From Candidatus Peribacter riflensis (GTDB lineage: Bacteria > Patescibacteriota > Gracilibacteria > Peribacterales > Peribacteraceae), in assembly GCA_001430755.1 (NCBI GenBank), contig CP013062.1, forward strand, positions 1,200,001-1,232,000: a stretch of DNA of 32,000 nucleotides, written 5' to 3'. Of the stretch, positions 3-27,700 are shown one piece after another. The notes under the pieces are model-generated. The model was not told where the DNA came from and did no database searches. It worked only from the letters and a program-made list of their open reading frames with translations. A program made the translations under genes and the position numbers. Each line of letters begins with the position of its first letter. The stretch's first letter is position 1.

Positions 3-3000
3 GACTGTCCTGTCTGCGGCGATGGCACACGCGAAGATCCGGAACAGTGCGACAATGGGGGAAACAATGGCACAGCCTGCACTCCGGCCTACAGTTCTTC
101 TTGCACCTATTGTTCCTCCAGCTGCACCAATGTCACTCTTCAGGGGCCACGGTGCGGGGATGGGACGCGCAATGGCAGCGAGCAGTGTGACGGATCATCG
201 ACCCCCTGTGGTTCAGGCAAGATGTGCAACAGTTCATGTCAATGTGTTGCCACCACTCAATCCTGTCTCTCAGAAGGCCAGAATGGGGTTTTTCCGTGGG
301 CTTCGGTCACCACGCCTCTGTCGTGTTGTACCGGATTGAATCCCACAGGAAATGTTTCCGTAATCGGTCCGGGACAGTGCGGGAATCTGGGATCGACATT
401 CGTCTGCACGTATTGTGGCGATGGTCAGTGTGAGTGGAACGAAAATGAATGTAATTGTTCCAATGATTGCGTCGCACAACCGTTCTGCGGTGACGGCACG
501 CGCAATGGCAGCGAGCAGTGCGATAACGGCGCGGCGAGCAACGGAACGGCTTGCACCCCCGCCTACGGGTCAACCTGCACGTACTGCTCTTCGAGCTGTA
601 CCAATGTCACGCTCCAGGGGCTGCGGTGCGGAGATGGTTCTTGTACCGATGGTGAGCACTGTGGCAATTGTGTCGCAGATTGCGTCTGCCAGGGAGGGTA
701 TTTCTGCGCCGTCGATCAGTGTATTCCCGATAACATGATCCGCTGCGACATCGGCGATACCTGCTTGAACAGCGCAACGTGTTGCTATGACGAGGTCTCG
801 CATGTGAATAGCTGTTGCCCCAATGTTGATTCCACCTGTTGCGGGGGGAATTGTTGCCCGACGGTCGGCGGCATGTTCCGGTGCGAAAACAACCAGTGTA
901 TTCCGGTGCAGTCTTTCTCCTCCTCCTTCTCCTCCTTCTCCTCCTTCTCTTTCATCCCGCCAACGAAGTATGGCGTGACCGTCACGGGGATCCCCGCCGT
1001 CGCCTATCCCAACAGGACCTATACAGTCACGATCAGTCTTACGAACAAGACATCCCAGCAAAAGAACTTTGCCCTGACACCCAGTAATGCTGTCATTCCA
1101 GAGCCGGGTGCGCCTCCCTTGGTGTTCAACTTCGCATCCAATCTGACGTACAGTTGCTATGGCAGCAATACGGATTACATTACCTGTGGAAACTATCCAT
1201 TGGCCCCCCAGGCAACGAAAACAATCCAGGTTTCCGCAACGACGGCGGCGAACTGCGTAGCAGGCCAGACACAGGGGCAGGGTATCTTTGCCATTCAGGT
1301 CAGTGATGGCACGCTTCAGGAGCCCTACGTGCTGCAGTCCGTGACCGAATACTGTGTGGCAGCCGGATGCGGCAACGGCGTGTGGGAGACCGGCGAGGGG
1401 TGCGAAGACGGGAACACGACGAGTGGCGACGGTTGCAGCGCCACCTGCGTGACAGAGTGTGCCGATACGGACGGCGGCAATGACCCCCTCGTGAAGGGAA
1501 CGGCGACGCATTGGGCCTGTTTTAATTCGCCTGGACAGCCCACATGCGGCCTGCGGCCATTTGCAGAGACAGACTCCTGTAATGGGTCTCTCTATACCGA
1601 GTGGTACTGCGATGCAGGAACCCGGAGAATCAAGGGCGATGGTGACAGGCAGTGCCCTGCCGGGAAGACATGCGTCGGTGGGGCGTGCGTCGTGGGGGCG
1701 TCTCCTTCCTCCTCGGTGTCTGCAGTGTGCGGCAACGGCGCCAAGGAGGGCACTGAACAGTGCGACAACGGCGCTTCGAACGGCCAAGCCTGTACTCCTT
1801 CTACTGGCGGCAGCTGCTCGTACTGTTCCGCCAGTTGCACCACTGTGACGTTGCAGGGTGACTCCTGCGGTGATGGATTGGTCAGTTCCGGCGAGGTGTG
1901 CGATACCCAAGGGCCTCCGTATCCGGGCTGCCCCGCAGGCGATACGTGCTACCAGTGCACCAATTGCGTGCGGTGCGGCAACGGCGTCATAGACCCCGGC
2001 GAAGTGTGTATGGTGATTCCTGTCTGTGACATGCCCTACTCCTGTACGAGCGGACCCACGTTCTGTCCGGCAGATTGCCCCGCATCTTCCGCAGCATCGT
2101 CCCAGTCTGCTGCTGCGGCGGCGGTGTGCGCAATCCCGGTCGGTTGGAATCCCTATGACATCGTCATAACGCCTGATGGAGCAAAGGTGTATGTCTCCGT
2201 GATGGGGGATGACACAGTCAAAGTCCTCTCCACCGCATCCAACTCGGTCATGGCGACGATTTCCGTCGGTGATGCACCGGCCCATATTGCCATGACTCCA
2301 AACGGCCAAAGAGTGTATGTACTCAATCAAGAAGGCAAAAGTGTGTCAGTGATTGCCACTGCGACCAATACGGTGATCGCAACGATTCCGATCAATAAAA
2401 CACCCAAGCGTCTTGCGATCACTCCTGATGGTGCGAAGGTGTACGTCACTGCCGGGAACAACAGTGTTTCGGTCATCTCCACGACGTCCAATACCGTGAC
2501 GGCCACGGTCACCGTAGGATCTTCCCCTCTCGGCATCGCCATCACCCCCGATGGAACGAAGGCGTATGTGGCCAATGAAATTGTTGGATCAGTTTCCATC
2601 ATCTCCACGGTATCCGATACTGTCATTGCCAGTGTGTCGGTTGGGGGTACTCCGCAAGATGTCGCCATCACCCCCAACGGCACGAAGGCGTATGTATCGA
2701 ATCATAATGGCAACACGATTGCCGTCATCTCCACCGCAACCGATACGGTTTCTGCATCAGTTTCCATTCAGAAATTTTCGTCTCGCGTTGCCATCACCCC
2801 CGACGGCACGAAGGTGTTTGCGCTGAATGATTGGGAGGCCAACCTCTCCGTCATCACCACGCAGTCCAATGGGCTCAGTGGAACCATGGATGTGGGGAGG
2901 GGGCCGACAGACATCGTCTTCACTGCAGACAGTACGAAAGCGTATGTGGTGAATAAAGCGGACGATACGGTGTCTGTGATCGCCACGGCAACGCGCAATA

Positions 3001-5144
3001 TTCTGGCCACGATCCCTGTCGGGGATTTCCCCGGAGCAATCGTTCTCTCTCCTGACGGTTCGAAGGCGTACGTGGCCAATGCCGGAGGGGGGTCCATCAC
3101 CGTCATCGACACGGCGACCAATACAGGTTGTCAGGCGGCCTCTTCTTCCTCTTCTTCCTCTGCTCTCTCATCGAAGGTACCTGCCTGCCCCGATGGCGTG
3201 CTGGATGCCGGAGAGACCTGCGAAATCGGCGTGTGTTGTGGTGCAGGCTACGTATGCGATCATGCATGCCGCTGTGTGCCCGCAGGCAGCTCCGCCTCTG
3301 CCTTCTTCGCGTCGTCCTCTTCTGCACTGATTCAGGCTTCCTCCTCCTCTGCCTTCTTCGCGTCGTCCTCTTCTGCACTGATTCAGGCTTCCTCCTCCGC
3401 TTTTCCAGCGTCGTTTTTCTCCACATCTGCCTCTTCGGCTGTTTCGGCGATGTGTGGCAATGGAAATCTGGAAGGTCTGGAACAGTGTGAAACCACTACC
3501 GCGTGTGCCAACGGGGCCATGTGCATGAATTGCTCGTGCGGAGCGGTCAGCTTCTGCGGAGATGATACGGTGGATTCCCTGCGGCAGGAGCAGTGCGAGC
3601 AGAATGCAGATTGCGCCGCCGGATACGTGTGTACGACCCAGTGTCTGTGCCAGCAGACGGGTGGCCTCTGCGGCGACGGCTCCCTTGAGGGATCCGAGGA
3701 GTGCGAGAGTGGATATTCCTGCACCGTTCCCGGTGAGATCTGCAGTAACTGTCTCTGTACGCCTCCTCCCCACTGCGGCAATCGCGTTCTGGAGTCACTG
3801 GAGGAATGCGAACTCTCTGATCCCTGTGTGGCAGATCAGGTGTGCGTGAACTGTATCTGCCGATCTCCGGCGGCGTGTGGCAATGCCGTTCTCGAGTCGG
3901 GCGAACAGTGCGAGGACGACACGCACTGCCTTACAGGGCAGAGATGTGACCGCAGCGCCTGCCGATGCGAGGGGACAGCGAGAGACTACTGCGGCGATGC
4001 CGTACTGAATCAGGGCGAAGAGTGCGAGGCGAATGCCCCCTGTACCGATGCAGGCAAGAACTGCGACTTGGATACCTGTCTCTGCGTCAGGCAGCCGGTG
4101 ATTCTGGCGTGTGGCGATGCCACACTCGATCCCGGCGAAGACTGTGATATTGGCATTGCGTGCCCTGCGGGAAGCTATTGTGTATTTCCGCGGTGCCACT
4201 GTGTCGGTGCCGTATCCCGTTGCGGAAACGGCAAGCTGGAGGGATCGGAGCGCTGCGAAATTGGAGCGGGGTGTCTACTGCCAGGCGAAGTGTGCGATCT
4301 TGCCACTTGCCAGTGTGCACCGTCTGATCCGGCGGGCAGATGCAGCAATGGCCTGCTCACCGCAGGAGAGGAATGTGAAGTGGGGGTGCCGTGCCCGTTC
4401 GGGTGGGCCTGTGATTTTCCACGTTGTGTATGCCAGAATCAACCGGTGTGTGGCAACAGCGTGCTCGACCCTGGTGAGCAGTGCGAGACGAATATGGCGT
4501 GCACGGGCGATCAGCAGACGTGCGACTTTTCGCGGTGCCGGTGCACAGGGCGCATCTACGAATGCGGTAACGGCGTGCGCGATCCCGGTGAAGAGTGTGA
4601 TGACGGCAACCGGAGTACCGGCGATGGCTGTTCAGCAGTCTGCCTGCGCGAAACCCTCTATTCACAGGTGCAGGCAGGCGCGTTCTGCGGCAACGGGATC
4701 GTCGAGAACCGTGAGGAGTGTGATGATGGCAATGTGTTCTCCGGCGACGGATGTACAGCATTCTGCACGTACGAGACACTTCCTGCTATCGATACCACGG
4801 AGCAACACCCCGCCGCCTCGGCAGAGTCTTCTCTCGCACGCTCCGCCCTCTCCTCGTCAATGATTTCTACGCCTGCACAGTTCACATCTTCAGTGGCTGC
4901 CGCCTCACAGTTCTGGTCGTCTTCGAGGCCTGCCCAGATCCCGTCTGCCCCGCTCGGAGCGATTACCATTCCCTTCCCCAAGCCTTTCAGTACTGTTGCA
5001 GTTTCTCAACTCGTCCGACCTTCACTCGTGCCCTTCATCCCTGCGCAGGCTCCCATGACGCGCACCGGCCCCGAGGTGGTGACCATCCTCTCTGCCGGGG
5101 CAGCCCTGGGGTGGGCATGGCTCCGGAGACGTCGGAAGGAATAG
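3..5144 (+). CDS. Giant secreted cysteine-rich modular surface protein (5'-partial): CGDG/EQCD Cys-rich repeats, Ig-like (CARDB/DUF11-like) segment, 8-blade YVTN-type beta-propeller, 12-repeat Cys-rich stalk, C-terminal membrane anchor
   Basis: Frame 3 is open from nt 3 (DCPVCGDGTREDPEQCDNGGNNGTACTPAY...), so the ORF-track Met at 222 is internal and the gene continues upstream. Stop is TAG at 5142-5144. The unit CG[DN]G-x5-EQCDNG..NG.AC.P....C.YC...C..VTLQG..CGDG recurs at nt 15-140, 487-640 and 1726-1860. An Ig-like segment lies at about 960-1360 (LAPQATKTIQVSAT). Propeller, stalk and anchor are listed as separate features. Confidence 0.9.
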   Translation, partial: DCPVCGDGTREDPEQCDNGGNNGTACTPAYSSSCTYCSSSCTNVTLQGPRCGDGTRNGSEQCDGSSTPCGSGKMCNSSCQCVATTQSCLSEGQNGVFPWASVTTPLSCCTGLNPTGNVSVIGPGQCGNLGSTFVCTYCGDGQCEWNENECNCSNDCVAQPFCGDGTRNGSEQCDNGAASNGTACTPAYGSTCTYCSSSCTNVTLQGLRCGDGSCTDGEHCGNCVADCVCQGGYFCAVDQCIPDNMIRCDIGDTCLNSATCCYDEVSHVNSCCPNVDSTCCGGNCCPTVGGMFRCENNQCIPVQSFSSSFSSFSSFSFIPPTKYGVTVTGIPAVAYPNRTYTVTISLTNKTSQQKNFALTPSNAVIPEPGAPPLVFNFASNLTYSCYGSNTDYITCGNYPLAPQATKTIQVSATTAANCVAGQTQGQGIFAIQVSDGTLQEPYVLQSVTEYCVAAGCGNGVWETGEGCEDGNTTSGDGCSATCVTECADTDGGNDPLVKGTATHWACFNSPGQPTCGLRPFAETDSCNGSLYTEWYCDAGTRRIKGDGDRQCPAGKTCVGGACVVGASPSSSVSAVCGNGAKEGTEQCDNGASNGQACTPSTGGSCSYCSASCTTVTLQGDSCGDGLVSSGEVCDTQGPPYPGCPAGDTCYQCTNCVRCGNGVIDPGEVCMVIPVCDMPYSCTSGPTFCPADCPASSAASSQSAAAAAVCAIPVGWNPYDIVITPDGAKVYVSVMGDDTVKVLSTASNSVMATISVGDAPAHIAMTPNGQRVYVLNQEGKSVSVIATATNTVIATIPINKTPKRLAITPDGAKVYVTAGNNSVSVISTTSNTVTATVTVGSSPLGIAITPDGTKAYVANEIVGSVSIISTVSDTVIASVSVGGTPQDVAITPNGTKAYVSNHNGNTIAVISTATDTVSASVSIQKFSSRVAITPDGTKVFALNDWEANLSVITTQSNGLSGTMDVGRGPTDIVFTADSTKAYVVNKADDTVSVIATATRNILATIPVGDFPGAIVLSPDGSKAYVANAGGGSITVIDTATNTGCQAASSSSSSSALSSKVPACPDGVLDAGETCEIGVCCGAGYVCDHACRCVPAGSSASAFFASSSSALIQASSSSAFFASSSSALIQASSSAFPASFFSTSASSAVSAMCGNGNLEGLEQCETTTACANGAMCMNCSCGAVSFCGDDTVDSLRQEQCEQNADCAAGYVCTTQCLCQQTGGLCGDGSLEGSEECESGYSCTVPGEICSNCLCTPPPHCGNRVLESLEECELSDPCVADQVCVNCICRSPAACGNAVLESGEQCEDDTHCLTGQRCDRSACRCEGTARDYCGDAVLNQGEECEANAPCTDAGKNCDLDTCLCVRQPVILACGDATLDPGEDCDIGIACPAGSYCVFPRCHCVGAVSRCGNGKLEGSERCEIGAGCLLPGEVCDLATCQCAPSDPAGRCSNGLLTAGEECEVGVPCPFGWACDFPRCVCQNQPVCGNSVLDPGEQCETNMACTGDQQTCDFSRCRCTGRIYECGNGVRDPGEECDDGNRSTGDGCSAVCLRETLYSQVQAGAFCGNGIVENREECDDGNVFSGDGCTAFCTYETLPAIDTTEQHPAASAESSLARSALSSSMISTPAQFTSSVAAASQFWSSSRPAQIPSAPLGAITIPFPKPFSTVAVSQLVRPSLVPFIPAQAPMTRTGPEVVTILSAGAALGWAWLRRRRKE
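2130..3125 (+). repeat. Eight tandem ~41-aa YVTN-family beta-propeller repeats (protein level) inside gene 1
   Basis: Eight units of the form [IV]xITPDG[AT]K[AV]YVxNxxxxxVSVIxTAT[ND]TVxAT[IV]xVGxxP, for example ITPDGAKVYVTAGNNSVSVISTTSNTVTATVTVGSSP. This matches the 40-residue YVTN repeat signature (TIGR02276) as I remember it. Confidence 0.85.
3297..3398 (+). repeat. Perfect 2 x 51-bp tandem repeat in a Ser-rich linker (SAFFASSSSALIQASSS x2)
   Basis: tctgccttcttcgcgtcgtcctcttctgcactgattcaggcttcctcctcc occurs at 3297-3347 and again, identical, at 3348-3398. Confidence 0.95.
3453..4775 (+). repeat. Array of 12 Cys-rich ~33-40-aa repeats (10 x CG[DN]xxL[ED]xGE[EQ]CE-x3-4-C-x5-7-C-x4-C-x-C, then 2 x CGNGxxxxxEECDDGNxxxGDGCxxxC Myxococcus-type/DUF4215-like)
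   Basis: Read directly from the translation. Examples are CGNAVLESGEQCEDDTHCLTGQRCDRSACRCEG and, at the end, CGNGVRDPGEECDDGNRSTGDGCSAVCLRE and CGNGIVENREECDDGNVFSGDGCTAFCTYE. The last two fit the TIGR02232 / Pfam DUF4215 consensus as I remember it. Confidence 0.85.
5055..5141 (+). other. C-terminal sorting-signal-like tail of gene 1: MTRTGP + 17 hydrophobic/small residues (EVVTILSAGAALGWAWL) + RRRRKE
   Basis: Tripartite layout at the extreme C-terminus. It is closely paralleled by the gene 7 tail (27974-28057). Confidence 0.7.
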
Positions 5145-5191
5145 GAAAAGATGCACGGGGAGCAATGCATTGCAGGGCTCCGGCACGGGGC

Positions 5192-8100
5192 TTAGAGCAG
5201 GAGGAAGGTCAGGATACCGATGGTGATGAAGCGGGTGCCCGGGAACGTTGCGGGAGCGTTCGGAATCGGGATGCCCTTCACGGCAAAGAGCTGGAGGTTC
5301 TGCACCCACTGTCCGAGGGTAAAGAAGGTGTTGCGGTACCTGCAAGTCAACTTGCACCGGGCGGAAGTGAGATCGCTGTTGAGCTCGCCGTCATCGCACG
5401 TTTCCCGCTCGCGTCCACCCGGGGGGGTCCTGTCCACGATGCCGTCACCGCAACGGGAGTACGTGCAATTCGTGCGGCAGAGGGCATTGGGCCTGTCATT
5501 GTTCGCCTCTCCGCCATCGCACTCTTCGCCCTCCTCGACCATGCCATTTCCGCAGCCGGCGCTGGCGCTGCTCTGCTGCGAGGAGGAACTGCTCTCTTCC
5601 GCGCTCGAGCTACTGCCTGTCTGCGGCAGGAGGCCGCAATTGGTGTACGGGGAGGGGGATTCGAAGCACTGCCCTACTCCGAAGAAGCTGCCTCCGATGA
5701 ACGGGTCTTCACAGCTCTCGCGGTCCAGATCATTGAAGCACAATCCGAAGTCCTCTCCTTCCACACAGCAATTGCCCTTCTCTTTTTCAGGCGCGGAGCT
5801 TGCACTCGCTGCGGCTGCTTCATGGGAGGAGGAACCACCTTCGTCTGCAGCACTGCTTTTCTGTCCGCCCCCGGCTGTACCGCCGCCTCCCACGCTGCTG
5901 ATCTCTGCTGCTTCCTGCGAGCTGGTTTCGGCTCCGGCGGAGGATGAGCCTTCTTCGATAGGACCGGTGAAGCATCCTGCAGCGAGACAGCGTTCTTTCC
6001 CTCCGACGATGCAGAAGACCTCCTGCGGTTCCTCATTGGCCAGCAAGTTGGCGGCGAGATCTAGGTCACCTTTCTCTTCGCAGGCGAAGAACGGCTGCCC
6101 GCCGAACAGGGCATCATTCTGCCGTCGCACACAGCAGGTGCGCTTGCCCTGCGGTTTTGTACCACAGGTATCTATTTCGCAGGCCGAGAGGCTCTCGCGG
6201 AAGCTGCCATTCATCTTCTGCTGACACTTGTCATACGTATTTGCCAGAGCGTCGCACAGATTCGCAGGTGAGACGGGATCTTGCGCGTAGCAGCAGATGC
6301 CAGTCTTTTCTTTGCACGAGATCCCCTCACAGGAGGTTCCCTCTTTCACCTCTCCATCACACTCTGCCGACAGCACGCAGGCGCCGCCGTTCTTGGGGCA
6401 GCAGGGCTTCGGTTTCTGTTCCGGCGTCGTGGGGTTGCAGGGATTGGAGGGAGCAGTGCTATCACTGGGGCAGGAGGCACCGGGCTTGAAATCGCCGTCC
6501 AGTAACTCTTCGCACATCTCGCGCGTCATTTCTTTGCCCCGAGAGGTGTCGAGGCAGAGTTCTCTGGTCGTGGCATCCGGTTTCTCTCGCGTGCAGCACG
6601 CGCCTTTCTTCTGCTGGTCGCAGAGAGTAGGAGAGCAGGCAGCCGCCGATTGTGGGGCGCCGCTCTTTGCCTCGCAGGCCTTGGTCGTGAGCATTTCACA
6701 GGTGGCACCGGGACTGCCCGGAACGCAACAAGGAGCCTGTTTTTCTGTTTGGACGGTGCAGACGATTCCTTCGCAGAAGTTCTTGTCGTTGATGGGCTTG
6801 TCTGGATCGCAGTTCTCCCGCTTCATCCCAACCGCGCACTGGCTGTTCGATATTTTGGGGCAGCAGGCCACAGGCTTCTCTTCGGGTGGACAGCCATCCG
6901 ACAGACACATGCCCTTCTTCATTTCTTTGCCCTCACCGCAACTGCCGCTCTTGGGTGCGTCGGCGCAGGAGGAGGTCTTCTTTTCAGCATCCCACGTGCA
7001 GCACGCGGGTTTGTCGGAGGGGCACTCACTGCAGGAGGCGGCGAGTCCTTTGTACTCTCCTTTGAATTGCTTGCACTCGGTCTCGGTCACAGTGAGACAC
7101 TGCAGGTTCTTTGCGGCCTCCGTGCCCGTACAGCAGATCCCCTTGGGGTCCAGGCAGGGGTTCTGGCCATTGACCAGATCACACGATGTCACGCCGCCCA
7201 CCCAGCGAACAGGGGCATAGCCCCTGTAGGCTGACTTACACTGCTCTTCTGTGATGCCCTGGGTGAAGAAGGGTGAAGTGCCTCCTTGGGCATCGCACCT
7301 CTGCCCCTGATAGGTGTAGCAGCAGATGCCCAGAGGACAGGCGGCGTTCGGGCCTTGTGATGAACATTCCTTCGCGTCGGGCCTGAAGGTGCCTTTCCCT
7401 TTTTCGCATGCCTGTTTGGAGAGGAGAGAGCACGTCCCCTCTGCGGAGCAGCAGGCACGATTACAGGAATCTTCCTTGCACTCCTTGGCGCTGAAGAGGA
7501 ACTCGCCGACGCCACACTGTTCTTTGGTGAGCTGGGAACACGTTTTTTCCTGTGCTGTGCAGCAGGGGCGACGGCAAAGAGAGCTCTTACACTCCTTTTC
7601 GTTCTCCATGTACTCGCCGCTCTGCGACGCGCAGGCGCTCTTTGAGAGGAGCTTGCATCCGTCGGCGGTGCAGCAGGCGCGCACGTTGTCACAGGGGTCG
7701 TCGAAGCAGAAGGATTGCTTCTTGAATGTGCCGCCGTAGCTCGCGCAGAGGGCCTGCGGCCGTTCGCTCTCGGCGGTCGTGAAATGATCGACGTTGAGAT
7801 CGACGCAGGGGGAGGGGTCATACTTCGTTTTGGGGTCGCAGCAGGCTCCCCAGTCGTCTACGGGCTTGCAGGGGAGGCTATCGCAGTTGCAGATCTGCTC
7901 GCATTCCTCCGTGAGCGTACCCGGCCGAAGGATGGCGGTGCCCGACATTTCCTGCTCTGCGCAGGTGACGGGGCCTCCGTAGGTACACATCCAGTTGTAT
8001 GTGTACTGTGGCGGAGAACCAACGCCAAACGGCGTCAGTACTTCACGGCAGCATGTCTTCTTCGGCGGGCAACAGCAGATGCCGCCGCCAGGCATATCTT

Positions 8101-11446: not shown

Positions 11447-11453
11447 TTGATGC

Positions 11454-11462
11454 ACTATACCA
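11454..11462 (-). promoter_or_regulatory. Extended -10 promoter element TGGTATAGT, 7 nt upstream of ATG 11446 (predicts a leaderless mRNA for gene 2)
   Basis: The minus strand reads AAATTTGGTATAGTGCATCAAATGTTCAGC. The block AAATTTGGTATAGTG is identical upstream of paralog gene 3. There is no Shine-Dalgarno sequence. Confidence 0.6.
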
Positions 11463-11541
11463 AATTTGCTGAGCAGAATCGCTTTCTGGTCCAGCGCAAT
11501 CGGGGTGAACGATTATTGGGGGATGGGGAAGGTGGTTCTTT

Positions 11542-15534: not shown

Positions 15535-15541
15535 TTGGCTC

Positions 15542-15550
15542 ACTATACCA
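15542..15550 (-). promoter_or_regulatory. Extended -10 promoter element TGGTATAGT, 7 nt upstream of ATG 15534 (predicts a leaderless mRNA for gene 3)
   Basis: The minus strand reads AAATTTGGTATAGTGAGCCAAATGTTCAGC. Box and spacing are the same as for gene 2. Confidence 0.6.
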
Positions 15551-15605
15551 AATTTCATGCACAATCGTTTCCGCCTGGCGTGAAGATCTGCGGTACCATG
15601 TTTCC

Positions 15606-16430: not shown

Positions 16431-16516
16431 TAAGAAGGAAGAATTATGAACGAAGCATCGGAGAAGACCCTCATTATTCTTCATTCTGTATCCATCATTC
16501 TTTTCTTTCCCAGGAT

Positions 16517-17980: not shown

Positions 17981-18080
17981 ACGGAGTGCGGCTCTCTGGA
18001 GGGCGAATGTCTGTGTTCGGTTTCCATTCAACAATTTTGCATTCGCGCAAGAACTCGCGCGGAGCGGGACGGCATAAAAG

Positions 18081-18089
18081 TGATACAGT
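18081..18089 (+). promoter_or_regulatory. Candidate extended -10 element TGATACAGT, 12 nt upstream of ATG 18102 (very short, SD-less leader for gene 6)
   Basis: AAAAGTGATACAGTGGCGCAAAGTCCATGTTC resembles the AAATTTGGTATAGTG box of genes 2 and 3. Confidence 0.35.
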
Positions 18090-18101
18090 GGCGCAAAGTC
18101 C

Positions 18102-21100
18102 ATGTTCCGGGCGTTTCGCACTCTCTTCTCGGCAGCATTTCTCAAGGGCGGGTTCGGCCTTGTGGGCATTGTCGCGCTTGCGTGGGCGCTCAATCAGGAT
18201 GTGCAGAGCCCGGGTTTTCTGCGGGCGCAGACAGCAACATCGGGCGCCTTGGTCTGTTGGGGGAATGACTACGGGTATGCTCCGCCAGCCGGCGATTGGA
18301 CTGATGTGACGGCCGGCTCAGCGTTCGCGTGTGCCATACGCGCCGCCGATGGCACGGTGGCGTGCTGGGGGGATAACCCCTACGGCCAAACGAATGCGCC
18401 TGCCGGACGATTTCAGAAGATCGATGCCGGAACGATGCATATGTGTGGCATCAAAGAAGACGGCTCGGTGGCCTGCTGGGGGACGAACAGCCATGGAGAA
18501 TCGAATCCTCCCACGGGTAGATTCATCGACATTACGGCGTCCCTCTCGTATTCCTGTGGCATCAAAGAAGACGGAACGATCGTCTGCTGGGGAGAGAATG
18601 TGAAAGGACAATTGAATGCGCCAACCGGAACATTCGTGCAGCTGACGGCGGAGGGCAATCATGGGTGCGCCCTGAAAGCGGATGGAACAGTCATGTGTTG
18701 GGGGGAGAATGTCAGCGGGTCCACCACTCCTCCGGCAGGCACGTTCCGTCTCGTCGAAGCGGGATATGCCTATACGTGCGGCATCAAGACGGATGGAACA
18801 CTGCAATGCTGGGGTCATGGCGGCGAAGGGCAAACCACCGCGCCGGCGGGGGCATTTTCTGATGTGGAGCTGGGAGTGAACCATGCGTGCGGTCTCCGGC
18901 AGGACGGGACGATCGTGTGTTGGGGAATGAGCGTCGGCGGTCAAACGAATCCGCCCACGGGAACCTTCACGGATATTGGTGTGGGGCTGTACCATGGTTG
19001 TGCGATTAGAGTCTCTGCGGGGAACAGTTCCTCATCCGTCTCCGTACAGTCCTGCCCATTGGGGTACACCTGCTCGAAGATCACGTCGTTTTCGTGCGGG
19101 TCCTTGCAGCTTCCGCTTTGCACACTCGAATACAGCGGCTCGTGCGGAACACCCTCCTGTCAAGGGGTGTGTTTCCGGTGTCAGTCGAGCTCTTCTTCCA
19201 CTCCCTCTGCGAGTATCACAGGTTCTGTGCAGCTCCCCAGCAGTGTTCCTCGCGGGGGCACCATCGTGTACCGCGTGACTGCTACGAATAACGGCAGTCA
19301 GCCTCTTTCGCAAATCGACGTGTATGTGCAATCAGCCGCGGCCAACACATTTGATGCCTCGCTCTCTGATTCCAGATGTGTCGGAGGCACGAATACGCAG
19401 AGTGTTGCCAACTGCGCCATTCCAACGCTGGCGGCCGGGCAGTCTGTGACTGTGGATGTCGGGTTCAGGCTAGGGGCCGCTTTGTCATGTTCTGCGGTCA
19501 TCAATTCCACTGTCTCGGTCAGAAGCACGACCCCCTCGACCGTCTGGAATAGTGAGCTATTGCTGACGCCGGTGACCTGCGTGTCATCGAGCTCGAGTAG
19601 TAGTGTGCAAGGGAGCAGTTGTGTCGATTCTGACGGCGGTATGAACCTTGATGTCGCCGGCACCGTCACCAGCACGTCCTGCAGCGGTTTTCCGCCGACG
19701 TGCATCACGGAAACGCACGCAGATGAGTGCGATGATCGTCCCGGTTATGAGAATGATATTGTTGAGTATTTCTGTGGCGGAGCGACGACAACGGATTGCG
19801 CAAACGGAAAGATCTGCCGCAACGGCGCCTGTGTTTTGAGTGCTTCCTCCTCTTCCTCCGCTGGGCAATGTATCGAAGGCATGCAGTACTGGGTGCCGGT
19901 GACTCTGACGCCTGCCAAAGACCTCAGGGCCTCGTGGCCCGGCACCGGCGACGCGTCGTACGTCGCCTATCTGAAGAGCACCAACGAAGTTTATCTCTCG
20001 CGCCTGTCGCTCTCTGGTCTTTCGATCACCAAGGCAACGGATGCGCGGATTTCGGGTGGCAGTTCGCTTGTAGATGTGGTGGCCCTCACGCCTTCCGATA
20101 TCTTCGTGGTCTACGACGACTCTGCCAGCCAGCGCTGCAAAGCCGTTCTGGTGCGCTGGTCAGGCGGCAATGCTGTCATCGGAACGCCGGTGGATGTGCC
20201 GGCATCGCAGTACAACCCCCGCTGTGACACCGTGCTCATCGCCCGCAAGCTCTCGGAGGGCAGGATTGCGCTGCTCTGGGGCCTTGACCAGAACTATCCC
20301 ACGCGCCTCGGCGCGACTACGGCGACGGTGGATGTCGCTGCCGGCACGATCGCATTTGGCCCCATTCCCCAGGAGCTCTCTTATTTCGTTGGGACCTATC
20401 AGGGCTCCCCCTTCGGGGACAGGGGCAAGCAGGTGGAGGTGGTGGTGCGCGATGCGAATACCATCGCGATCATCGGCAGGGCCGGCGGCGCCATAGTTTC
20501 TCAGCCCCGGTGGTTCGCCAATCTGTTCGCGTGGACCACATCCAGAAGCGGGGGAGTCGGTGCGGCGGGCATGTGGGTGCGCGATTGCGCGATCAACGGT
20601 TCCACGTTCACCTGCGATGATCAGTCGGGAGGCAGCGTTGGCGCAACCGGCTATGAAGTGAGCGGGGCAAAGGTCGGATCGAATTTCGTCGTTGCGCCGA
20701 CGTTGATCGGCAGCGGGCCCGGCGTCTCGGTTGAGGGCAAGACCGTCTCGGGATGGGGAGGTGCTCAGATTCCGGAATGGGAGAATAGCTGGACCAGCTT
20801 TTATACCTTTGTGCCGCTCTCGAACGGGCAGTTTATGATCACGGCGAAGACGCAGAATTCCACGATGGCTGCGCTGGGGCGCATCACCACCAGCGATATC
20901 GTCTGGTCGGCAATTACATCTCCTCCCGGCAGTAAGGTAGTCATTCCGGCAGGCGCCCAGGACAAATTTCTCTTCTTCTACTATCCGGATTCCGGTCAGT
21001 CGAATGGCCAGACCGCTGTGACGGCCGGCCAGTACACGGCGGATTGTCCGGGTTGCGGCAACGGGCAGTTGGATCCGGGCGAACAGTGCGGCGAACCGGG

Positions 21101-21749
21101 CTTGTCGTGTTCCGCGGGCCGGACATGCCAGAGCTGCCAGTGCACTCTCATTCCTGCATCATCCTCTTCATCGCGTCCCGCGGTCTGCGGCAATGGCCAA
21201 CTCGAGGGAGTGGAACAGTGTGAACAGGGAGTCCCCTGCGCACTTTCGGGAAGGCAGTGCAATTTCGGCACCTGCCAGTGTGTGCTTATCGTGCCATCCT
21301 CTTCCAGCTCCAGCGCGTCATCCGTTCCGGTTACGCCGGCGTCTTCCTCGCTGTCCGCTGCCTGCGGCAACGGTGTCCTGAATACGGGGGAACGGTGCGA
21401 TACGACGGGCAATCTCGGCTGCGCCGCAAGCGAGACGTGCCAGAGCTGCACGGCGTGCACCCGCTGCGGCAACTTCGTCCTCGAGGAGGGCGAAGGGTGC
21501 GAAGTCGGCATTGCGTGTTCCTCGAGTCTGGCCTGCAACATCGGCACCTGCCGGTGCGAGACGGTCTTTAGCGGGATACAGACGCAGGCGCCTACCTGCG
21601 GTGACTTCCGCATCCAGCCGGGGGAGGACTGCGAATACGGCATCACGACGCCACAGCCGCCCTGTACCGGCAACGCTGTCTGCAACGTGCAGACCTGTCG
21701 GTGCCCCGCCGGCACGGCGCGCCACCCCCGTAACGCCCGTCTTCAGTGA
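18102..21749 (+). CDS. Large (1215 aa) secreted protein: signal peptide/anchor, 7-blade RCC1-like propeller, DUF11/CARDB-like Ig segment, CxDSDGG module, Cys-poor unknown domain, C-terminal Cys-rich repeats; no C-terminal anchor
   Basis: The N-terminus MFRAFRTLFSAAFLKGGFGLVGIVALAWAL is hydrophobic. The Ig-like segment reads GGTIVYRVTATNNGSQPLSQIDVYV...LAAGQSVTVDVGF. The C-terminal repeats include CGNGQLDPGEQCGEPGLSCSAGRTCQSCQC and CGNGQLEGVEQCEQGVPC. Stop is TGA at 21747-21749. Confidence 0.88.
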   Translation: MFRAFRTLFSAAFLKGGFGLVGIVALAWALNQDVQSPGFLRAQTATSGALVCWGNDYGYAPPAGDWTDVTAGSAFACAIRAADGTVACWGDNPYGQTNAPAGRFQKIDAGTMHMCGIKEDGSVACWGTNSHGESNPPTGRFIDITASLSYSCGIKEDGTIVCWGENVKGQLNAPTGTFVQLTAEGNHGCALKADGTVMCWGENVSGSTTPPAGTFRLVEAGYAYTCGIKTDGTLQCWGHGGEGQTTAPAGAFSDVELGVNHACGLRQDGTIVCWGMSVGGQTNPPTGTFTDIGVGLYHGCAIRVSAGNSSSSVSVQSCPLGYTCSKITSFSCGSLQLPLCTLEYSGSCGTPSCQGVCFRCQSSSSSTPSASITGSVQLPSSVPRGGTIVYRVTATNNGSQPLSQIDVYVQSAAANTFDASLSDSRCVGGTNTQSVANCAIPTLAAGQSVTVDVGFRLGAALSCSAVINSTVSVRSTTPSTVWNSELLLTPVTCVSSSSSSSVQGSSCVDSDGGMNLDVAGTVTSTSCSGFPPTCITETHADECDDRPGYENDIVEYFCGGATTTDCANGKICRNGACVLSASSSSSAGQCIEGMQYWVPVTLTPAKDLRASWPGTGDASYVAYLKSTNEVYLSRLSLSGLSITKATDARISGGSSLVDVVALTPSDIFVVYDDSASQRCKAVLVRWSGGNAVIGTPVDVPASQYNPRCDTVLIARKLSEGRIALLWGLDQNYPTRLGATTATVDVAAGTIAFGPIPQELSYFVGTYQGSPFGDRGKQVEVVVRDANTIAIIGRAGGAIVSQPRWFANLFAWTTSRSGGVGAAGMWVRDCAINGSTFTCDDQSGGSVGATGYEVSGAKVGSNFVVAPTLIGSGPGVSVEGKTVSGWGGAQIPEWENSWTSFYTFVPLSNGQFMITAKTQNSTMAALGRITTSDIVWSAITSPPGSKVVIPAGAQDKFLFFYYPDSGQSNGQTAVTAGQYTADCPGCGNGQLDPGEQCGEPGLSCSAGRTCQSCQCTLIPASSSSSRPAVCGNGQLEGVEQCEQGVPCALSGRQCNFGTCQCVLIVPSSSSSSASSVPVTPASSSLSAACGNGVLNTGERCDTTGNLGCAASETCQSCTACTRCGNFVLEEGEGCEVGIACSSSLACNIGTCRCETVFSGIQTQAPTCGDFRIQPGEDCEYGITTPQPPCTGNAVCNVQTCRCPAGTARHPRNARLQ
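18243..19010 (+). repeat. Seven RCC1-like repeats (~38 aa; G.V.CWG.N..GQ...P.G.F..[IV].[AL]G..H.C[GA][IL]K.DG)
   Basis: There are seven CWG motifs: VCWGNDYG, ACWGDNPYGQ, ACWGTNSHGE, VCWGENVKGQ, MCWGENVSGS, QCWGHGGEGQ and VCWGMSVGGQ. Each is followed by P[AP][TA]G.F and a ...C[GA][IL]... strand. Confidence 0.8.
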
Positions 21750-21754
21750 TCCGC

Positions 21755-24700
21755 ATGATTCTTTCTTCCCTCCGCTTCCGGCAGATTGCCATCCTCCTCG
21801 CACTCGTCGTGACGGGGATGCTCATCGGCAACTTCGTGGGCAGTGGAGGGCGCTGGCAGGCGCAGGTGGCGCCGCCGGCCGTCTGCGGCAACAGCCGGTG
21901 CGAGCTCGGCGAGCGGAGGACGCTGCGCATCCCGTCACTTCCGATTTTCAGAACCGAGAATGACGGTGAGGTCATCATCGGACACGCGGTCTCGTACGCG
22001 GGCGATACCGACGGCAACGGCGCGGGCGACCTGCTCGTTGTGGGGACAGAAGCAGATTACGGGTCATACGATTCTGCTGCCCGCAAGAAGGTGTGGCTCG
22101 TGCGCATGGAACAGGACGGACGGATGAAATCGTACAGCCAGATCGCCGGACCGGAGTGGGGGTACCAATATGCTGAAGGAGGTTTCGCTGCAGGAGTTAC
22201 GCTGGTGCAAAATCCCCAGGGTACCCCCGTGTACGCGGTCAGCAGCAACGAAAACAGCTATCCGAACTACACGGCTATCCGTTTCTATGACCAGTCAGGA
22301 GGTGCGATGGGAACATCCGGCGACGGCATCACCAATCTGCCGCATCACGTGCTCGCCGGCATCGGCGACATCGACGGCAATGGCATCGGCGATCTGGCGG
22401 TGGCCAACCAGTATGCAGACACCCCCTACGGCATGGGCAAAATCACAGTGGTGTTGCTCGAAGCGAATTACTCGGTCAAGTCTACGCATGTCATCGCTTC
22501 GGAAGGGGACGGTTTCGGCACCGATGATCTGGCGATGGGCGGTCGGTCGATCACAGCGCTCGGCGATCTGGATGGCGATGGCTTGAAAGAAATCGCCGTG
22601 GGTAACGGCAATACCGGCGGCGGTGAGATGGGTTCGGTGTACATCTTGTCGCTGCGCGCGGATGGCAGTGTGGCAGACAAGCGGCTGCTGACACCCGGCA
22701 GCGATTTCACGCTGCAGGGCGAGCTCAACGGGTTTGCCAACAGCCTCGCGGGGGTCGGCGACTGGAACGGCGACGGCGTGCCCGATCTCGCCGTGCTGTC
22801 GTACGAGTACGTCGAACACCCTCCTCTTGTCGGGTCACACGCGTCGCCTGTCATTCACATTCTCTTGCTCACGGCGCAGAAAGGGGTGGCGGGTACGCAA
22901 TCCTTCCGGTATGCGGATCTGGGGGCGTTCGCCGGAGCCGCCGTTTTCGGCAACGGCTGGCCGCTTGCTGCCATGCCCGATCAGGACGGCGACGGCAAGA
23001 TGGAACTGATCTTGGGCGTGCCCGGCGACGGCTCGTGCGGGGGGCAGATTTCGAACCCGCAGGGGGCAGTGCACGTGATCCTGTCGCGCGCGATGACCGC
23101 GTGCCCGGGCGACTGCAATTTCTGCCCGCAATTGTCCTACACGCCCGCGCGGTCATCGCGGTACTTCTTTACTCCCGGCTACAGCACCCTTCCCCCGCTC
23201 GCGAGCTGCGGTAACAGCCAGTGCAACGCGGGCGAGATGAATCCGGTTGTGCTGCAGGGGGCGGATGCGAATCAGCCGTACGTTGCGCTCTCTCTGTTCA
23301 TGGGCACGAAATCCCTCGATACCTTGGGCGATTTCGACGGAGACGGCGTCGATGATCTGGTACTGGGGGGCGTGACGCAGAATGTGGCGGGTGTGGATCG
23401 TTACGGCATGAACGAGGTGCAGATTGTCCGTCTCAATTCCAACGGCACCCAGAAATCGGTCACCCGCATCTACGAAGGCACAAGTGGGCTGCAGACGGGC
23501 GATGCCGATGGTTCGTACATTGGCGCCATCGTCGCCTCGATCGGAGATCTCGATGCGGACGGCGTGCGCGATATTGCCGTATCGGCATTCCCGCAGTCCC
23601 GCACTCCCACATCGTATGCAGTATGGATTCTGCTGCTGCGGTCGGATGGCACGGTGAAGTCGGCGCGCAAGATCGCAGCGGGGCAGGGCGGATTCACCGG
23701 TTCCATTGCGGAGAAGTTTGGTACGGCGCTGGAGGGAATCGGCGACTTCGACGGCGACGGCGTGCCCGATCTGGCCGTGGGTGATCCTGGTTACAGCACC
23801 TACAACACGGCCAAGGAAGGTCGGGTGCACTTGCTCATGCTCAACCGCAACGGGACGGTGAAATCCTCCAGGACCCTGTGGGCCTCGTCGTTCACGGCTG
23901 TGCCGAATACCAGCGACATGCTGCGTGCCTCGCACCCGTACATCCGGTTCGGGTCTGCGGTTGCATTTCTGGGCGACGTGCACTCTGACGGCAGAAAGTT
24001 CCTGGCGGTGGGGGGCGGCGAGAGCGTCTGGACCATGGCGTTCAATGTCGACGGGAGCCTGAACACGGTCAAGCGCACGCAGGGGACCGCAGTGTCACCC
24101 GCCGGCGATCAGGATGGCGACGGAAAGACAGACCTCATAATTTCGTACTCGCCTGATGAGCCTGCAGAAATCTGCCCTGAGTGTGAGCCAACCTATGACA
24201 CCGCGTGGGCTGCGTACTACTCCGTTCTCACGGACGGCACACTGGAGCAGCTGTGGAATGCCAGCTACGGCAGTCTCTATCTTCCGGGTGGTGGAGGAAC
24301 ATGGTGGGGGAATCTTCCGGGGCGGGAGGTGGCGACCATCCGCGACTTAGACGGTGACCAGAAGCACGAGTTCATCATGCTGGATAGCGGCTCATTTACC
24401 TGCAGGGGGTCGTCGCACGTCGGCTTGGCGTGGCTGCTCTTCTCCGGCAGTTTGGGGCCCCGCTGCGAGGCCGATTGCGCCAGTGTGAATTTCTGCGCGG
24501 TACAGCAGCAGGCACCCGTGTGCGGCAACGGTACGGCGGAGTCGGGAGAGCAGTGCGGCGAACCCGGACTCTCGTGTTCCACCGGTCAGACATGCCAGAA
24601 CTGTCTGTGTGTGGGAGGTACCTCCTCTTCACAGCAGAGCTTGGACGGTACGTGGGTGAATTGCCCGGCAGGGTGGGCCTGCAACAAGAGTCTGGATAGT

Positions 24701-27700
24701 GGAGTCTGCAATACGCGGTCGTTGAATCCTCCTCCTCCGGGATGCACAACAGAAATGGGTACCACCTGCGGCACCGCCGCCTGTTCCGGCACCTGTTCCC
24801 GTATGGTCTGCGCCAGCTCCTCCTCGAGCAGTGCCGTATCGGTATCCGTGAGCTGCGGCAACGGCATCAAAGACGGCAGTGAGCAGTGCGAAAGCCCCGC
24901 AATGCGTCAGACCATGACGACGGGTCCCCGGCCCGGATGGGTTCGACACGGCGACTTCAACGCGGATGGCTGGCAGGATCTTGTAACGGTCAATTACAGT
25001 TCGGATAATGCCAATAATTCCATTTCCGTTTTTCTCAACAGAGGCGACGGTACATTCTTTACCAAAGTCGATTACCCGTTCACACCGCAGCACCAAGTCT
25101 TATCCATAGATGTGTACGATATGAATGACGACGGAAAGGTGGATTTCATCGTGAGGAGCGGCGGAAAGCTCCGCGTTCTCAAAGGCAACGGGGACGGTAC
25201 CTTCCAGTCTCCAGCATCTTTTTTACCTGGTGATCCGTTTACCACTGGGATTGGTGCGGCATTCGGCGATTTCAACGAAGACGGGCGCACTGATGTTGTC
25301 ACCGGCATCACTCTCTCCAGCGGTGTGCAATTCTTCGCAGGGCAGGGAGGCGGGGCGTTTGCGGCCGGCGTCACTGCTGCCGGATATCCGAGCCACTTGC
25401 ACATCGTTACTGCGGATTTCGATGCCGACGGGCATACGGACGTCGCTTTTTTGCCTACCAACAGCGGGAATGATCCTTCCGATGCCACGTTCGAGGGGTC
25501 AGTACAGGTGTTGTACGGCAATGGGGCGGGAGCGTTCACCGCCGTGCCGATTCCGCAACCATCTTCCTCTGTTTCCAACATGATGGGATTTTTCGTCCGG
25601 GATGCAAACCTGGACGGACGTCCCGATCTCATCGTGCGCGGCAACGGTTCGGTTTCTACCATCTGGATCAACAATGGGAACCGCACGTTTCAGGAGAAGA
25701 CCACCAACGGGGGCCCAATGGGGGAATCACGCGCGTTCTTCGATATCGATGGCGACGGAAAAATGGATGTCATCACGAGTGCCTATTCCACCGGTATGGG
25801 CAAGCAGCTGGAGGTACACAAGGGCGTCGGGGACGGGTCGTTCCAGAACACTGCCAGTTACGTCATTCCACTGCCGCATTCCTATACCTGTCTGATGACC
25901 GCTATCATCGGCGCAGATTTCAATCGTGACGGCAAACTGGACATGGCTGTGGCCCATGGGAATGCCTGCCAGGACAACATCACAAACGCCGATGCCGTCT
26001 CGGTATTCCTGAGCCCCTGCGCACCGGGGCAAACCTGCGCGAATTGTCAGTGCAGCGGCGGCGTGCCGGTTTCTTCCTCAAGCTCCAGTCTTCCGGTGGT
26101 CGTTTCCTCCTCCAGCCATTCCTCCAGTGCCAGCATCATCGTCGGCTCCTCCTCCAGCATCGCCGTGGCCTCGTTCTGTCCGAACGGAGTCATCGAACCT
26201 GCGGAGCAGTGCGAGATCGGGTACGCCTGCCCCACAGGGTCCACGTGCAATTCCTTCTGTGTGTGTTCTGGCGGTGCGTCCTCCTCCTCTTCTATTGTTT
26301 CTTCCTTCCCCTCTTCTTCTCTCTCTTCCATTCCCTCCTCTGTGAGCTCGGCACAGAGCTCCGTTTCGATTGAGGTGTTCTGCGGCAATGCCGTGCTGGA
26401 GGGTACCGAGACGTGCGAAGCGAATCATCCCTGCCCCACGGGTCAACTCTGCATGAACTGTCTCTGCTCAACACCCAGCTACTGCGGCGACAACGTCGTC
26501 AATACGGAGGATGGCGAACAGTGCGAATCGGACCCCGACTGTTCGCAGGGTGAAGTGTGCACGTTGAATTGTCTGTGCCATGCAGGCACGGGAGGGAACT
26601 GCGGCAATGGGACGATGGAAGCGCTGGAGCAGTGCGAGCGCAACCATCCGTGCGGAGAAGGAATGCAGTGCCAGGCGTGCCTGTGCGTCGAGGTGCCGCG
26701 TTGCGGGAACAACGTCCGTGAGCGAGGGGAGCAGTGCGAGACGAACGTCTTCTGCCCTGTGGGCTCCTCGTGCGTGAATTGTCTCTGCCAGCAGGGCATG
26801 GATTGCGGAGACGGCAATCTGGCTGCGGGTGAACAGTGTGAGAAGGACAGCCACTGCCTCGAAGGGCAATTCTGCAATATGCTCGCATGCCAGTGCGAAG
26901 GAGCCGGCGCAGGGTGCGGCGACGGCATGCTGGAGGGCTCGGAACAGTGCGAACTGGGCAGCCCGTGCCAGAACTTCGAAGAAAGCTGCGATCTCTCGAC
27001 GTGCAGGTGCACGACCGATCCGATCATCTCCACGTGCGGCAATGCGATGGTGGATGCCGGCGAAGATTGCGACATCGGCATGCCCTGCGGCGAGGGAGAG
27101 ATCTGTAATTTTGCCAATTGCCACTGCATGTCGTGGGCGACGCGCTGTGGCGACGCACAGCTCTCGGAAAATGAGCAGTGCGAGATCGGTCTGCCGTGTG
27201 CCGACCTGGCGCAGGCGTGCGACCTGAGCCGGTGTGTCTGTGCGGCACTGGAACCAGACGCGAGCTGCGGCGATGGTCTGGTGGCTGTCGGCGAGGAGTG
27301 CGAGGTGGGCGTTCCCTGTCCATTCGGGTGGTCCTGCAATTACTCGCGTTGCCAGTGTCTCAATCTGCCGATCTGCGGCGATGGGTCGCAGGATGCCGGA
27401 GAACAGTGTGAGGTGACCCTGGCCTGTTCCGAGAGCGGCATGATGTGCGATTTCTCGCGCTGTCGCTGCGTCGGGAATCTCGTGGCCTGCGGGAACGGCG
27501 TGCTTGATCCCGGTGAGCAGTGTGACGACGGAGACACGTCTGCCGGTGACGGCTGCGATGCCCGGTGCCAGCGGGAATGGATCACGATGGTGGGCGGAAC
27601 ATCGATCTGCGGCAATGGTATTGTGGAGCTGCCGGAGGAGTGCGACGACAGTAATGTGCTTTCCGGAGACGGATGCTCGGGTGATTGCCGTTTGGAGATT

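Follow-up and report, generated by a model that had tools for sequence, protein, structure and literature searches.

Candidatus Peribacter riflensis is a member of the Peregrinibacteria with a genome of 1.25 Mb and 58.5% GC (Anantharaman 2016, PMC4736985). The window analysed here is a stretch of 32,000 nucleotides of this genome (contig CP013062.1, positions 1,200,001 to 1,232,000 of the forward strand). It has a G+C content of about 60%, and its list of open reading frames (ORFs) is dominated by giant Cys-rich genes. A preliminary description of the window had proposed that three unrelated families of beta-propeller are mounted on the same class of Cys-rich stalk, and knew of no described system with this combination. 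The latter point does not hold. A cluster of large, Cys-rich extracellular proteins in this organism was published in 2016, with labels that include lactonase, regulator of chromosome condensation (RCC1), integrin alpha FG-GAP, and pappalysin or Myxococcus Cys-rich repeat (Table S4 of PMC4736985). A role in attachment was already proposed there, and strain variation in the cluster was remarked upon. The protein lengths in the window equal those of ORFs 1089-1097 in that table (1968, 2084, 1338, 1215, 2101/2104, 1595 and 1289 residues). Exact matches to the proteins of genes 6 and 7 and of the reverse-strand gene gA occur on contigs from Rifle aquifer groundwater, some of them as large as a genome. 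The window is thus the published cluster, and the present analysis refines a known feature.

The features of genes 1, 6, 7 and 8 are as follows, in positions of the window.

3 to 5144, forward strand: gene 1 (ORF 1089); the frame is open from base 3 and the 5' end is cut by the window
2130 to 3125, forward strand: YVTN beta-propeller of gene 1, eight repeats of about 42 residues, predicted to form eight blades
3183 to 3278, forward strand: isolated six-Cys unit of gene 1, found by pattern
3290 to 3414, forward strand: Ser-rich linker of gene 1, a 51-nt tandem repeat with 98% matches (Tandem Repeats Finder)
3450 to 4547, forward strand: stalk of gene 1, ten six-Cys units found by regular expression and alignment, collinear with the gene 7 stalk
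4560 to 4769, forward strand: two canonical four-Cys DUF4215/TIGR02232 units of gene 1, found by hidden Markov model (HMM) and regular expression
5052 to 5141, forward strand: C-terminal tail of gene 1, read from the sequence as PMTRTGP, a hydrophobic stretch and RRRRKE
18102 to 21749, forward strand: gene 6 (ORF 1094, 1215 residues), with leader, RCC1-like propeller, Cys knot, DUF11, a domain of about 400 residues and five six-Cys units
18243 to 19010, forward strand: short-blade RCC1_2 (BLIP-II/ACR4-like) propeller of gene 6, seven repeats, the first and last units split
21051 to 21707, forward strand: five six-Cys units of gene 6 with Ser-rich spacers, found by an HMM of gene 1 units only
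21746 to 28060, forward strand: gene 7 (ORF 1095, 2101-2104 residues), whose start overlaps or abuts the gene 6 stop
21950 to 23185, forward strand: FG-GAP region 1 of gene 7, five clear DxDxDG loops
23243 to 24505, forward strand: FG-GAP region 2 of gene 7, five clear loops and one degenerate loop
24518 to 24613, forward strand: single six-Cys unit between propellers 2 and 3 of gene 7, found by HMM and pattern
24908 to 26155, forward strand: FG-GAP region 3 of gene 7, seven evenly spaced DxDxDG loops
26174 to 26269, forward strand: further six-Cys unit of gene 7, found by pattern
26378 to 27472, forward strand: stalk of gene 7, ten six-Cys units found by regular expression and the gene-1-only HMM
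27485 to 27691, forward strand: two canonical four-Cys units of gene 7 (TIGR02232, 68 bits)
27950 to 28057, forward strand: C-terminal tail of gene 7, read from the sequence as GPVGSTGP, a hydrophobic stretch and RRRRR
28118 to 32000, forward strand: gene 8 (ORF 1096, 1595 residues), cut by the window end, with the same stalk and anchor and a non-propeller head

The stalks are built from a repeat unit with the consensus x-C-G-[ND]-G-x-L-E-x-G-E-[EQ]-C-E-x4-C-x2-G-x2-C-x2-4-C-x-C. Its six Cys residues are invariant in all 35 units (35/35) from genes 1, 6, 7 and 8. Relatedness was assessed with an HMM made only from the ten gene 1 units, with 120 composition-matched shuffles as controls. The HMM scores 271 bits on gene 7, 70.7 bits on gene 6 (10.7-33.8 bits per unit) and 47 bits on gene 8; the shuffles reach at most 3.3 bits. 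It has no match in gA and gB, two further giant genes of the cluster. By this profile the stalks of genes 1, 6, 7 and 8 are related, and the claim that the propellers share one class of stalk stands. The paralogues are old. Between the stalk genes the only DNA to recur is a unit head of about 43 nt, with 29 copies in the window that are 61-80% identical. The unit between propellers 2 and 3 of gene 7 has 78% DNA identity to the gene 6 unit at 21054-21142. Recent gene conversion between stalks was considered and rejected, as long tracts of high DNA identity are confined to tandem repeats within genes or to the leaders of gA and gB.

The Myxococcus cysteine-rich repeat is described by the DUF4215 and TIGR02232 models. 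In genes 1 and 7 these detect no more than the final two or three units, which have the canonical four-Cys form. TIGR02232 (cut-off 20.8 bits) scores 89.8 bits on gene 1 and 68 on gene 7; PF13948 (cut-off 27) scores 33.4 bits on gene 1 and 26.2, just under the cut-off, on gene 7. Pfam DUF4215 and NCBIfam TIGR02232 have no matches in gene 6. The full four-Cys pattern, CGNGxxExGEECDDGNxxxGDGCxxxC, is absent from the bulk of the stalk and from every gene 6 unit. When six-Cys and four-Cys units are compared with hhalign, they align with 96.7% probability over only the N-terminal 18 of 32 columns. Because the similarity is confined to these columns, the six-Cys unit is classed from its alignment as a divergent variant of the Myxococcus repeat. 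Among 1.84 billion proteins, an HMM search with the unit finds 2382 representative proteins with expectation values (E) of 1e-3 or less and 64 at 1e-30 or less. Many of the top matches are 1000-4300 residues long and end with the same tail. Six-Cys units number 51 in 4 of 17 Peregrinibacteria loci, and one in 63 other loci which hold 536 canonical units; as the loci were selected by pattern, these counts are indicative only.

Structure prediction of the gene 7 stalk gives one small beta-hairpin per unit, with a predicted local distance difference test score (pLDDT) of 78 and a predicted template modelling score (pTM) of 0.27. A model which is locally confident and globally undefined is what would be expected of beads on a string. 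In a Foldseek search the stalk model matches a single module of about 37 residues in PAPP-A and PAPP-A2 (probability 0.9-0.99, root-mean-square deviation (rmsd) 1.0-2.5 A, 49-55% identity). The Foldseek output carries no aligned query range, so that the matching unit cannot be read from it; judging by the sequence pattern, the match is probably to a canonical four-Cys unit, of which the stalk has two. Foldseek matches to megalin, TNFR and ADAM proteins were set aside, their probabilities being 0.5 or less. A sequence search of the PDB with the stalk found nothing at E values up to 1. A search for functional literature on DUF4215 found nothing beyond a preprint on the adhesive trails of diatoms.

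Each unit of the gene 1 stalk has its counterpart in the same order in gene 7, and the alignment of the two continues through a low-complexity linker into the tail. In BLASTP, gene 1 and gene 7 are 46% identical over 569 positions of stalk and tail (43% over 657 positions with the full proteins). Gene 8 and gene 9 are 53.5% identical over 514 residues, and cross-pairs with genes 1 and 7 share 31-36% identity. Towards their N-termini the four proteins are unrelated to each other. The alignments thus mark a stalk-plus-anchor cassette of genes 1, 7, 8 and 9 that is paralogous from end to end.

The tail follows the pattern P[VIM]x[ST/R]TGP, then a hydrophobic AAGAAxGWAW, then RRRR. It matches no known NCBIfam sorting-domain signature. 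Only its hydrophobic and basic part aligns to sorting-domain models (TIGR03382, 19.5 bits on gene 1; TIGR02595, 20.9 bits on gene 8), and the signature positions of PEP-CTERM and MYXO-CTERM are unmatched. The tail motif is [VIA][GA]xTGP rather than LPXTG, and the LPXTG model (TIGR01167) scores 13.2-15.0 bits against a cut-off of 15.9. When one genome per species was scanned, only genomes of Peribacteria/Peregrinibacteria gave matches which extend into the tail; in Myxococcota, Binatia and others the matches cover the Cys repeats alone. All 16 extracted Peregrinibacteria ORFs (16/16) end in xTGP, AAGAAAGxAW and RR[KR]. Many giant Peregrinibacteria proteins have a conserved tail of this kind (xTGP, AAGAAxG[FW]AW, RR[RK]; loci L010-L072). 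A literature search for a sorting signal in bacteria of the candidate phyla radiation (CPR) found no description of one, and the xTGP tail may constitute a sorting signal not yet described. Among the genes tabulated in 2016 are two that are sortase A-like (ORF 264 and ORF 350); one sortase A-like gene adjoins another pappalysin-annotated, DUF4215-like protein (PMC4736985). The word 'exosortase' does not occur in that table. Processing of the tail by a sortase is possible.

Gene 1 encodes a protein of 1968-1985 residues in full; the full gene is present in L004/L005, and the length matches Table S4. Upstream of the window lie its N-terminal leader and a lectin-like domain. This most N-terminal domain is a legume-lectin-like beta-sandwich (PF18483, E 3.5e-9, under the curated cut-off). 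Several other Cys modules precede the propeller. The propeller, which had been described as eight YVTN repeats at 2130-3125, falls in the YVTN repeat family: TIGR02276 scores 214.2 bits against a cut-off of 27.85, in seven stretches, and eight units of about 42 residues can be counted by eye. It also has Pfam matches to lactonase and YncE. The equivalog models for lactonase, hydrazine synthase and NosZ all score far under their cut-offs, and the match is to the generic YVTN repeat. The closest solved structure by sequence is 1L0Q (E 6.6e-76, 39% identity).

The AlphaFold model of the gene 1 propeller, made with 50 sequences, is confident (pLDDT 91.4, pTM 0.89) and has 32 strands, which agrees with the fold first proposed. 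It superposes best on ODA16, NirF, NirN and TBLR1 (template modelling (TM) score 0.79-0.83, rmsd 2-4 A); 1L0Q superposes with a TM score of 0.72 and an rmsd of 7.7 A. 1L0Q has seven blades, and ODA16, NirF and NirN have eight. Because the best superpositions are with eight-bladed chains, and there are eight repeats and 32 strands, the model supports a closed propeller with eight blades. The 51-nt repeat of the Ser-rich linker between propeller and stalk differs in copy number between assemblies, giving proteins of 1968 and 1985 residues (a difference of 17). In assembly L006, gene 1 appears as a stalk-only ORF of 564 residues with two ORFs on the opposite strand. A deletion of the head was considered for this and rejected; the DNA is 100% identical to L004 outside the 51-nt repeat, so the ORF is an artefact of assembly or gene calling.

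The head of gene 6 at 18243-19010 is RCC1-like with seven repeats, as had been read: six full units of about 38 residues, and a seventh made up by the split first and last units. PF13540 (RCC1_2) scores 137.6 bits against a cut-off of 22, in six stretches. The nearest solved relatives are BLIP-II (5.7e-24) and the plant ACR4 ectodomain (7.3e-23), both of which are seven-bladed propellers; the repeat count suggests a closed, seven-bladed fold for gene 6 also. About 680 residues of other domains separate this propeller from the six-Cys units of the same protein. They include the domain of about 400 residues (window 19827-21044), which has no match in Pfam or PDB searches; a homologue (E 1e-82) is present in P0261, another stalk-bearing protein. 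Gene 6 has no C-terminal anchor. Its TGA stop codon at 21747-21749 overlaps what may be a GTG start for gene 7 (21746); the alternative ATG lies at 21755. Whichever start is used, the spacing indicates that genes 6 and 7 are tightly coupled.

The three FG-GAP regions ascribed to gene 7 are likewise borne out. FG-GAP_3 (PF13517) scores 197.5 bits and FG-GAP (PF01839) 136.5 bits, above the gathering scores, and 17 loops of the DxDxDG type fall into three groups of 5, 5 and 7. Only region 3 shows seven regular repeats; it has a weak PDB match to CRTAC1. Region 1 may have about seven blades.

The propellers had been placed N-terminal to the Cys arrays in every case. The arrays do follow the propellers; however, units also occur N-terminal to propellers, between the propellers of gene 7 and on both sides of the gene 8 head, and in gene 1 the lectin-like domain is more N-terminal still. 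The head of gene 8 consists of four repeats of about 115-130 residues (29480-31180), flanked by six-Cys arrays, for which Pfam and PDB searches found no match. The full gene 8 lies at L007:16373-21160. A protein of 176 residues just upstream of gene 1, outside the window (L005:22264-22794), has a leader and two six-Cys units only, an arrangement which indicates that the unit also occurs on its own.

Three lines of comparison indicate that heads are interchangeable on the shared stalk. The first is the cluster itself, where homologous cassettes bear YVTN (gene 1), FG-GAP (gene 7), YVTN-like (gene 9) and non-propeller (gene 8) domains. The second comes from relatives. Their heads on the same stalk are most often FG-GAP, and also YVTN, DUF11, SdrD_B, a galactose-binding-like domain, disintegrin-like repeats, carbonic anhydrase, Laminin_G_3 and NHL/Vgb-type propellers. 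The protein P0241 (2928 residues) has an FG-GAP region and a YVTN propeller together on one stalk-anchor cassette. The homologue searches listed matches of at most about 1.75 times the query length, in which giant proteins are invisible; the lack of DUF4215 partners for YVTN and RCC1_2 in them was discarded for this reason.

The third line is a syntenic locus, L090, in a related organism. Its gene order is a pseudouridine synthase (79% amino acid identity), a beta-CASP RNase (83%), a gene for 2013 residues and a gene 7 homologue. The housekeeping pair lies at window 15606-17980 and L090:1215-3555. DNA homology covers window 15473-18211, reaching into the gene 6 leader, and resumes only at 21544-21869. 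The 2013-residue protein resembles gene 6 in its leader (72% over 43 residues) and its C-terminal end (43% over 148 residues). RCC1 repeats are absent from its interior, which instead holds DUF4215, DUF11, Golvesin_C and an FG-GAP propeller. These observations support a replacement of the head at the gene 6 locus. The gene 7 homologue of L090 is only about 29% identical, against about 80% for the housekeeping neighbours, and the surface genes appear to evolve much faster than these neighbours.

The preliminary description had likened the layout to receptors or adhesins diversified by swapping propeller heads on a stalk, and had suggested a survey of relatives for further head types. Much of this stands: the proteins are modular, the cassette is shared, a head has been replaced in L090 and many head types are found on the same stalk. 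However, the heads are not specifically propellers, as the gene 8 repeats and the SdrD_B, carbonic anhydrase and disintegrin-like domains of relatives indicate, and gene 6 is anchorless.

Other genes of the cluster lie between genes 1 and 6. The giant genes gA (2084 residues, 11.4% Cys; 5192-11446, reverse strand) and gB (1338 residues, 9.5% Cys; 11542-15558, reverse strand) have no Pfam match, and the repeats of gA have none in Pfam or the PDB. Both consist of Cys repeats of another kind ('GACC...C...C' units), and their DNA shows tandem periods of 111, 162 and 450 nt. A leader is common to the two, as is a C-terminal part with two DUF4215-like units; each protein ends in a hydrophobic stretch with no basic tail. 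The gB protein has 1338 or 1188 residues depending on the assembly; the gap of 150 residues equals the 450-nt period of a tandem repeat inside the gene. The RluA-type pseudouridine synthase and the beta-CASP RNase (15606-17980) stand inside this cluster of surface proteins. In a scan of the window for promoters and terminators, sites were no more numerous than in shuffled sequence.

The proteins of the cluster are best read as modular cell-surface proteins, most likely adhesins or receptors for the surface of a host cell or a polysaccharide, and this reading is held with moderate confidence. Export would proceed via the N-terminal leader. The small modules would be locked by disulfides made by a Dsb system; DsbB and two DsbA/C-like genes are listed in the published gene table (PMC4736985). 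Putative ligand-binding modules (lectin-like, YVTN, RCC1-like, FG-GAP, DUF11 or other domains) would be joined by Ser-rich linkers to a rod in which about ten six-Cys units precede two DUF4215 units of canonical type. The tripartite C-terminal signal (xTGP, hydrophobic helix, Arg/Lys tail) would keep each protein attached to the envelope, serving as a membrane anchor or possibly acting after sortase-like cleavage between the Thr and Gly. The binding modules would then be projected on a segmented rod. Diversification would take three routes: duplication of the stalk-anchor cassette; swapping of the interior while the leader and the C-terminal end stay conserved; and change in tandem-repeat copy number, as in the 51-nt repeat of gene 1 and the two lengths of gB. 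The 43-nt unit head could supply microhomology for such exchanges.

Several points weigh against this reading. The leaders were assigned by eye and from the statement of the 2016 paper. YVTN and lactonase-type propellers can be enzymes. Gene 6, anchorless and with only five units, may be secreted or depend on gene 7. Sortase processing is a guess, given a tail that lacks LPXTG and falls under the LPXTG cut-off, and the case for head replacement comes from one syntenic comparison. As units also occur N-terminal to and between heads, the Cys units may be general connectors rather than only a basal stalk.

One alternative is that the proteins are structural components of the envelope or resemble a surface layer (S-layer). 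They would form a cross-linked coat for protection or scaffolding, in which the propellers serve for lattice building or assembly instead of ligand binding. 1L0Q, the solved structure nearest to the gene 1 propeller, is an archaeal surface-layer protein; the Cys content of the cluster proteins is very high (5-11%); many paralogues lie within one cluster; and heavy investment in envelope components was noted for this organism (PMC4736985). However, the heads are highly diverse and replaced between close relatives, and the linker repeats vary in copy number, a pattern more in keeping with interaction surfaces that are under pressure to diversify than with the subunits of a lattice. S-layer genes are also reported separately from the Cys-rich cluster (PMC4736985). 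A coat of this kind is judged unlikely.

Another alternative gives the function to the Cys repeats themselves, through binding of calcium or a ligand or through homotypic interaction, with gene 6 docking onto other stalks. The acidic residues of GE[EQ]C[ED] are conserved, and the NCBIfam name is that of an acidic repeat. Units at both ends of heads and in small unit-only proteins such as the 176-residue one, and a gene 6 product with no anchor whose stop overlaps the gene 7 start, would suit this idea. The order and number of units next to the anchor are, however, conserved in many paralogues, as would be expected of a spacer, and the only solved relative is a single module in PAPP-A, on whose role the structure search is silent. 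An active role for the repeats is accordingly judged improbable. That the heads are catalytic and the stalk displays enzymes, which might suit an organism with few biosynthetic pathways, gains something from the lactonase and YncE matches, from carbonic anhydrase in relatives with the same repeat and from reprolysin in DUF4215 proteins, but it is very unlikely: the YVTN match is generic, with all three equivalog models far under their cut-offs, the RCC1_2/BLIP-II-like and FG-GAP propellers are classically binding modules, and no catalytic residues were identified here.

The adhesin or receptor reading can be taken one step further. Leader, six-Cys/DUF4215 rod and xTGP signal might together form a display chassis specific to the Peribacteraceae lineage, on which unrelated heads are exchanged in frame at orthologous loci. 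This extension is tentative, and on present evidence doubtful. If true, the chassis would be a cassette system for changing attachment specificity in reduced and probably host-dependent bacteria, with a logic comparable to the swapping of phage receptor-binding proteins. CPR bacteria are thought to live attached to other cells. The cluster takes a visible share of a small genome. Given the shared cassette, the restriction of the C-terminal signal to one lineage and at least one head replaced in frame, its products are candidate host-contact proteins which can be tested, and which may show how specificity changes. New models would improve the annotation of these genomes, as those now in Pfam and NCBIfam overlook the six-Cys unit and the xTGP tail.

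Comparison with known systems puts these proteins in a wider context. Fusions of DUF4215 arrays with PA14, thioester, Kelch, FG-GAP, lectin, MAM, reprolysin and further domains abound in Myxococcota as well as elsewhere. The general principle of Cys-repeat arrays fused to varied domains is therefore not new, and the combination is not without precedent, such fusions being common in databases. DUF4215/TIGR02232 proteins share the N-terminal half of the unit, CG[ND]GxxExGE[EQ]C[DE], with the present stalks; the arrays of genes 1 and 7 each close with two canonical units; and arrays of both kinds are fused to extracellular domains, including FG-GAP and, in the DUF4215 proteins, Kelch propellers. 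Unlike those proteins, most units here have six Cys, with a C-terminal half (C-x2-G-x2-C-x2-4-C-x-C) which Pfam and NCBIfam miss, and the C-terminal tail is of the xTGP rather than the MYXO-CTERM type. PAPP-A and PAPP-A2, known from cryo-EM, contain one module like a stalk unit and are the only credible solved-structure matches for the stalk; the module stands singly inside a metalloprotease, whereas here there are arrays and no protease domain.

The heads have their own relatives. The Methanosarcina mazei surface-layer protein (1L0Q) has an extracellular YVTN propeller followed by connector domains, as in gene 1. Its connector is PKD, whereas that of gene 1 is made of Cys repeats, and it superposes worse than the eight-bladed chains. 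ACR4/CRINKLY4 and BLIP-II have short RCC1-like blades of about 40 residues, as in gene 6. ACR4 has a Cys-rich, TNFR-like region after its propeller, which would repeat the arrangement of a propeller ahead of Cys-rich modules; its kinase and transmembrane receptor architecture is absent here, and the Cys modules are unrelated in sequence. A binding propeller on small disulfide-rich modules is also found in integrins (I-EGF stalks), the LDL receptor (YWTD-EGF), semaphorins and plexins (Sema-PSI) and CRTAC1. These eukaryotic receptors share a design principle with the present proteins by analogy, and the DxDxDG loops of gene 7 are integrin-like; their stalk modules are not homologous to those here, and the present proteins come from a bacterium and have no heterodimer partner. 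Integrin alpha subunits share only the FG-GAP repeat with gene 7, and the 'integrin' label in the published table is an annotation transfer.

The closest comparison is with the 2016 account of the cluster itself (PMC4736985), which has the same locus, lengths, annotations and proposal of attachment. The locus, its likely role and the repeat family were thus known. To these the present analysis adds the six-Cys variant of the repeat, the collinear stalk-anchor cassette, the Peregrinibacteria-restricted xTGP tail, blade counts that include a predicted eight-bladed YVTN propeller, and one syntenic head replacement.

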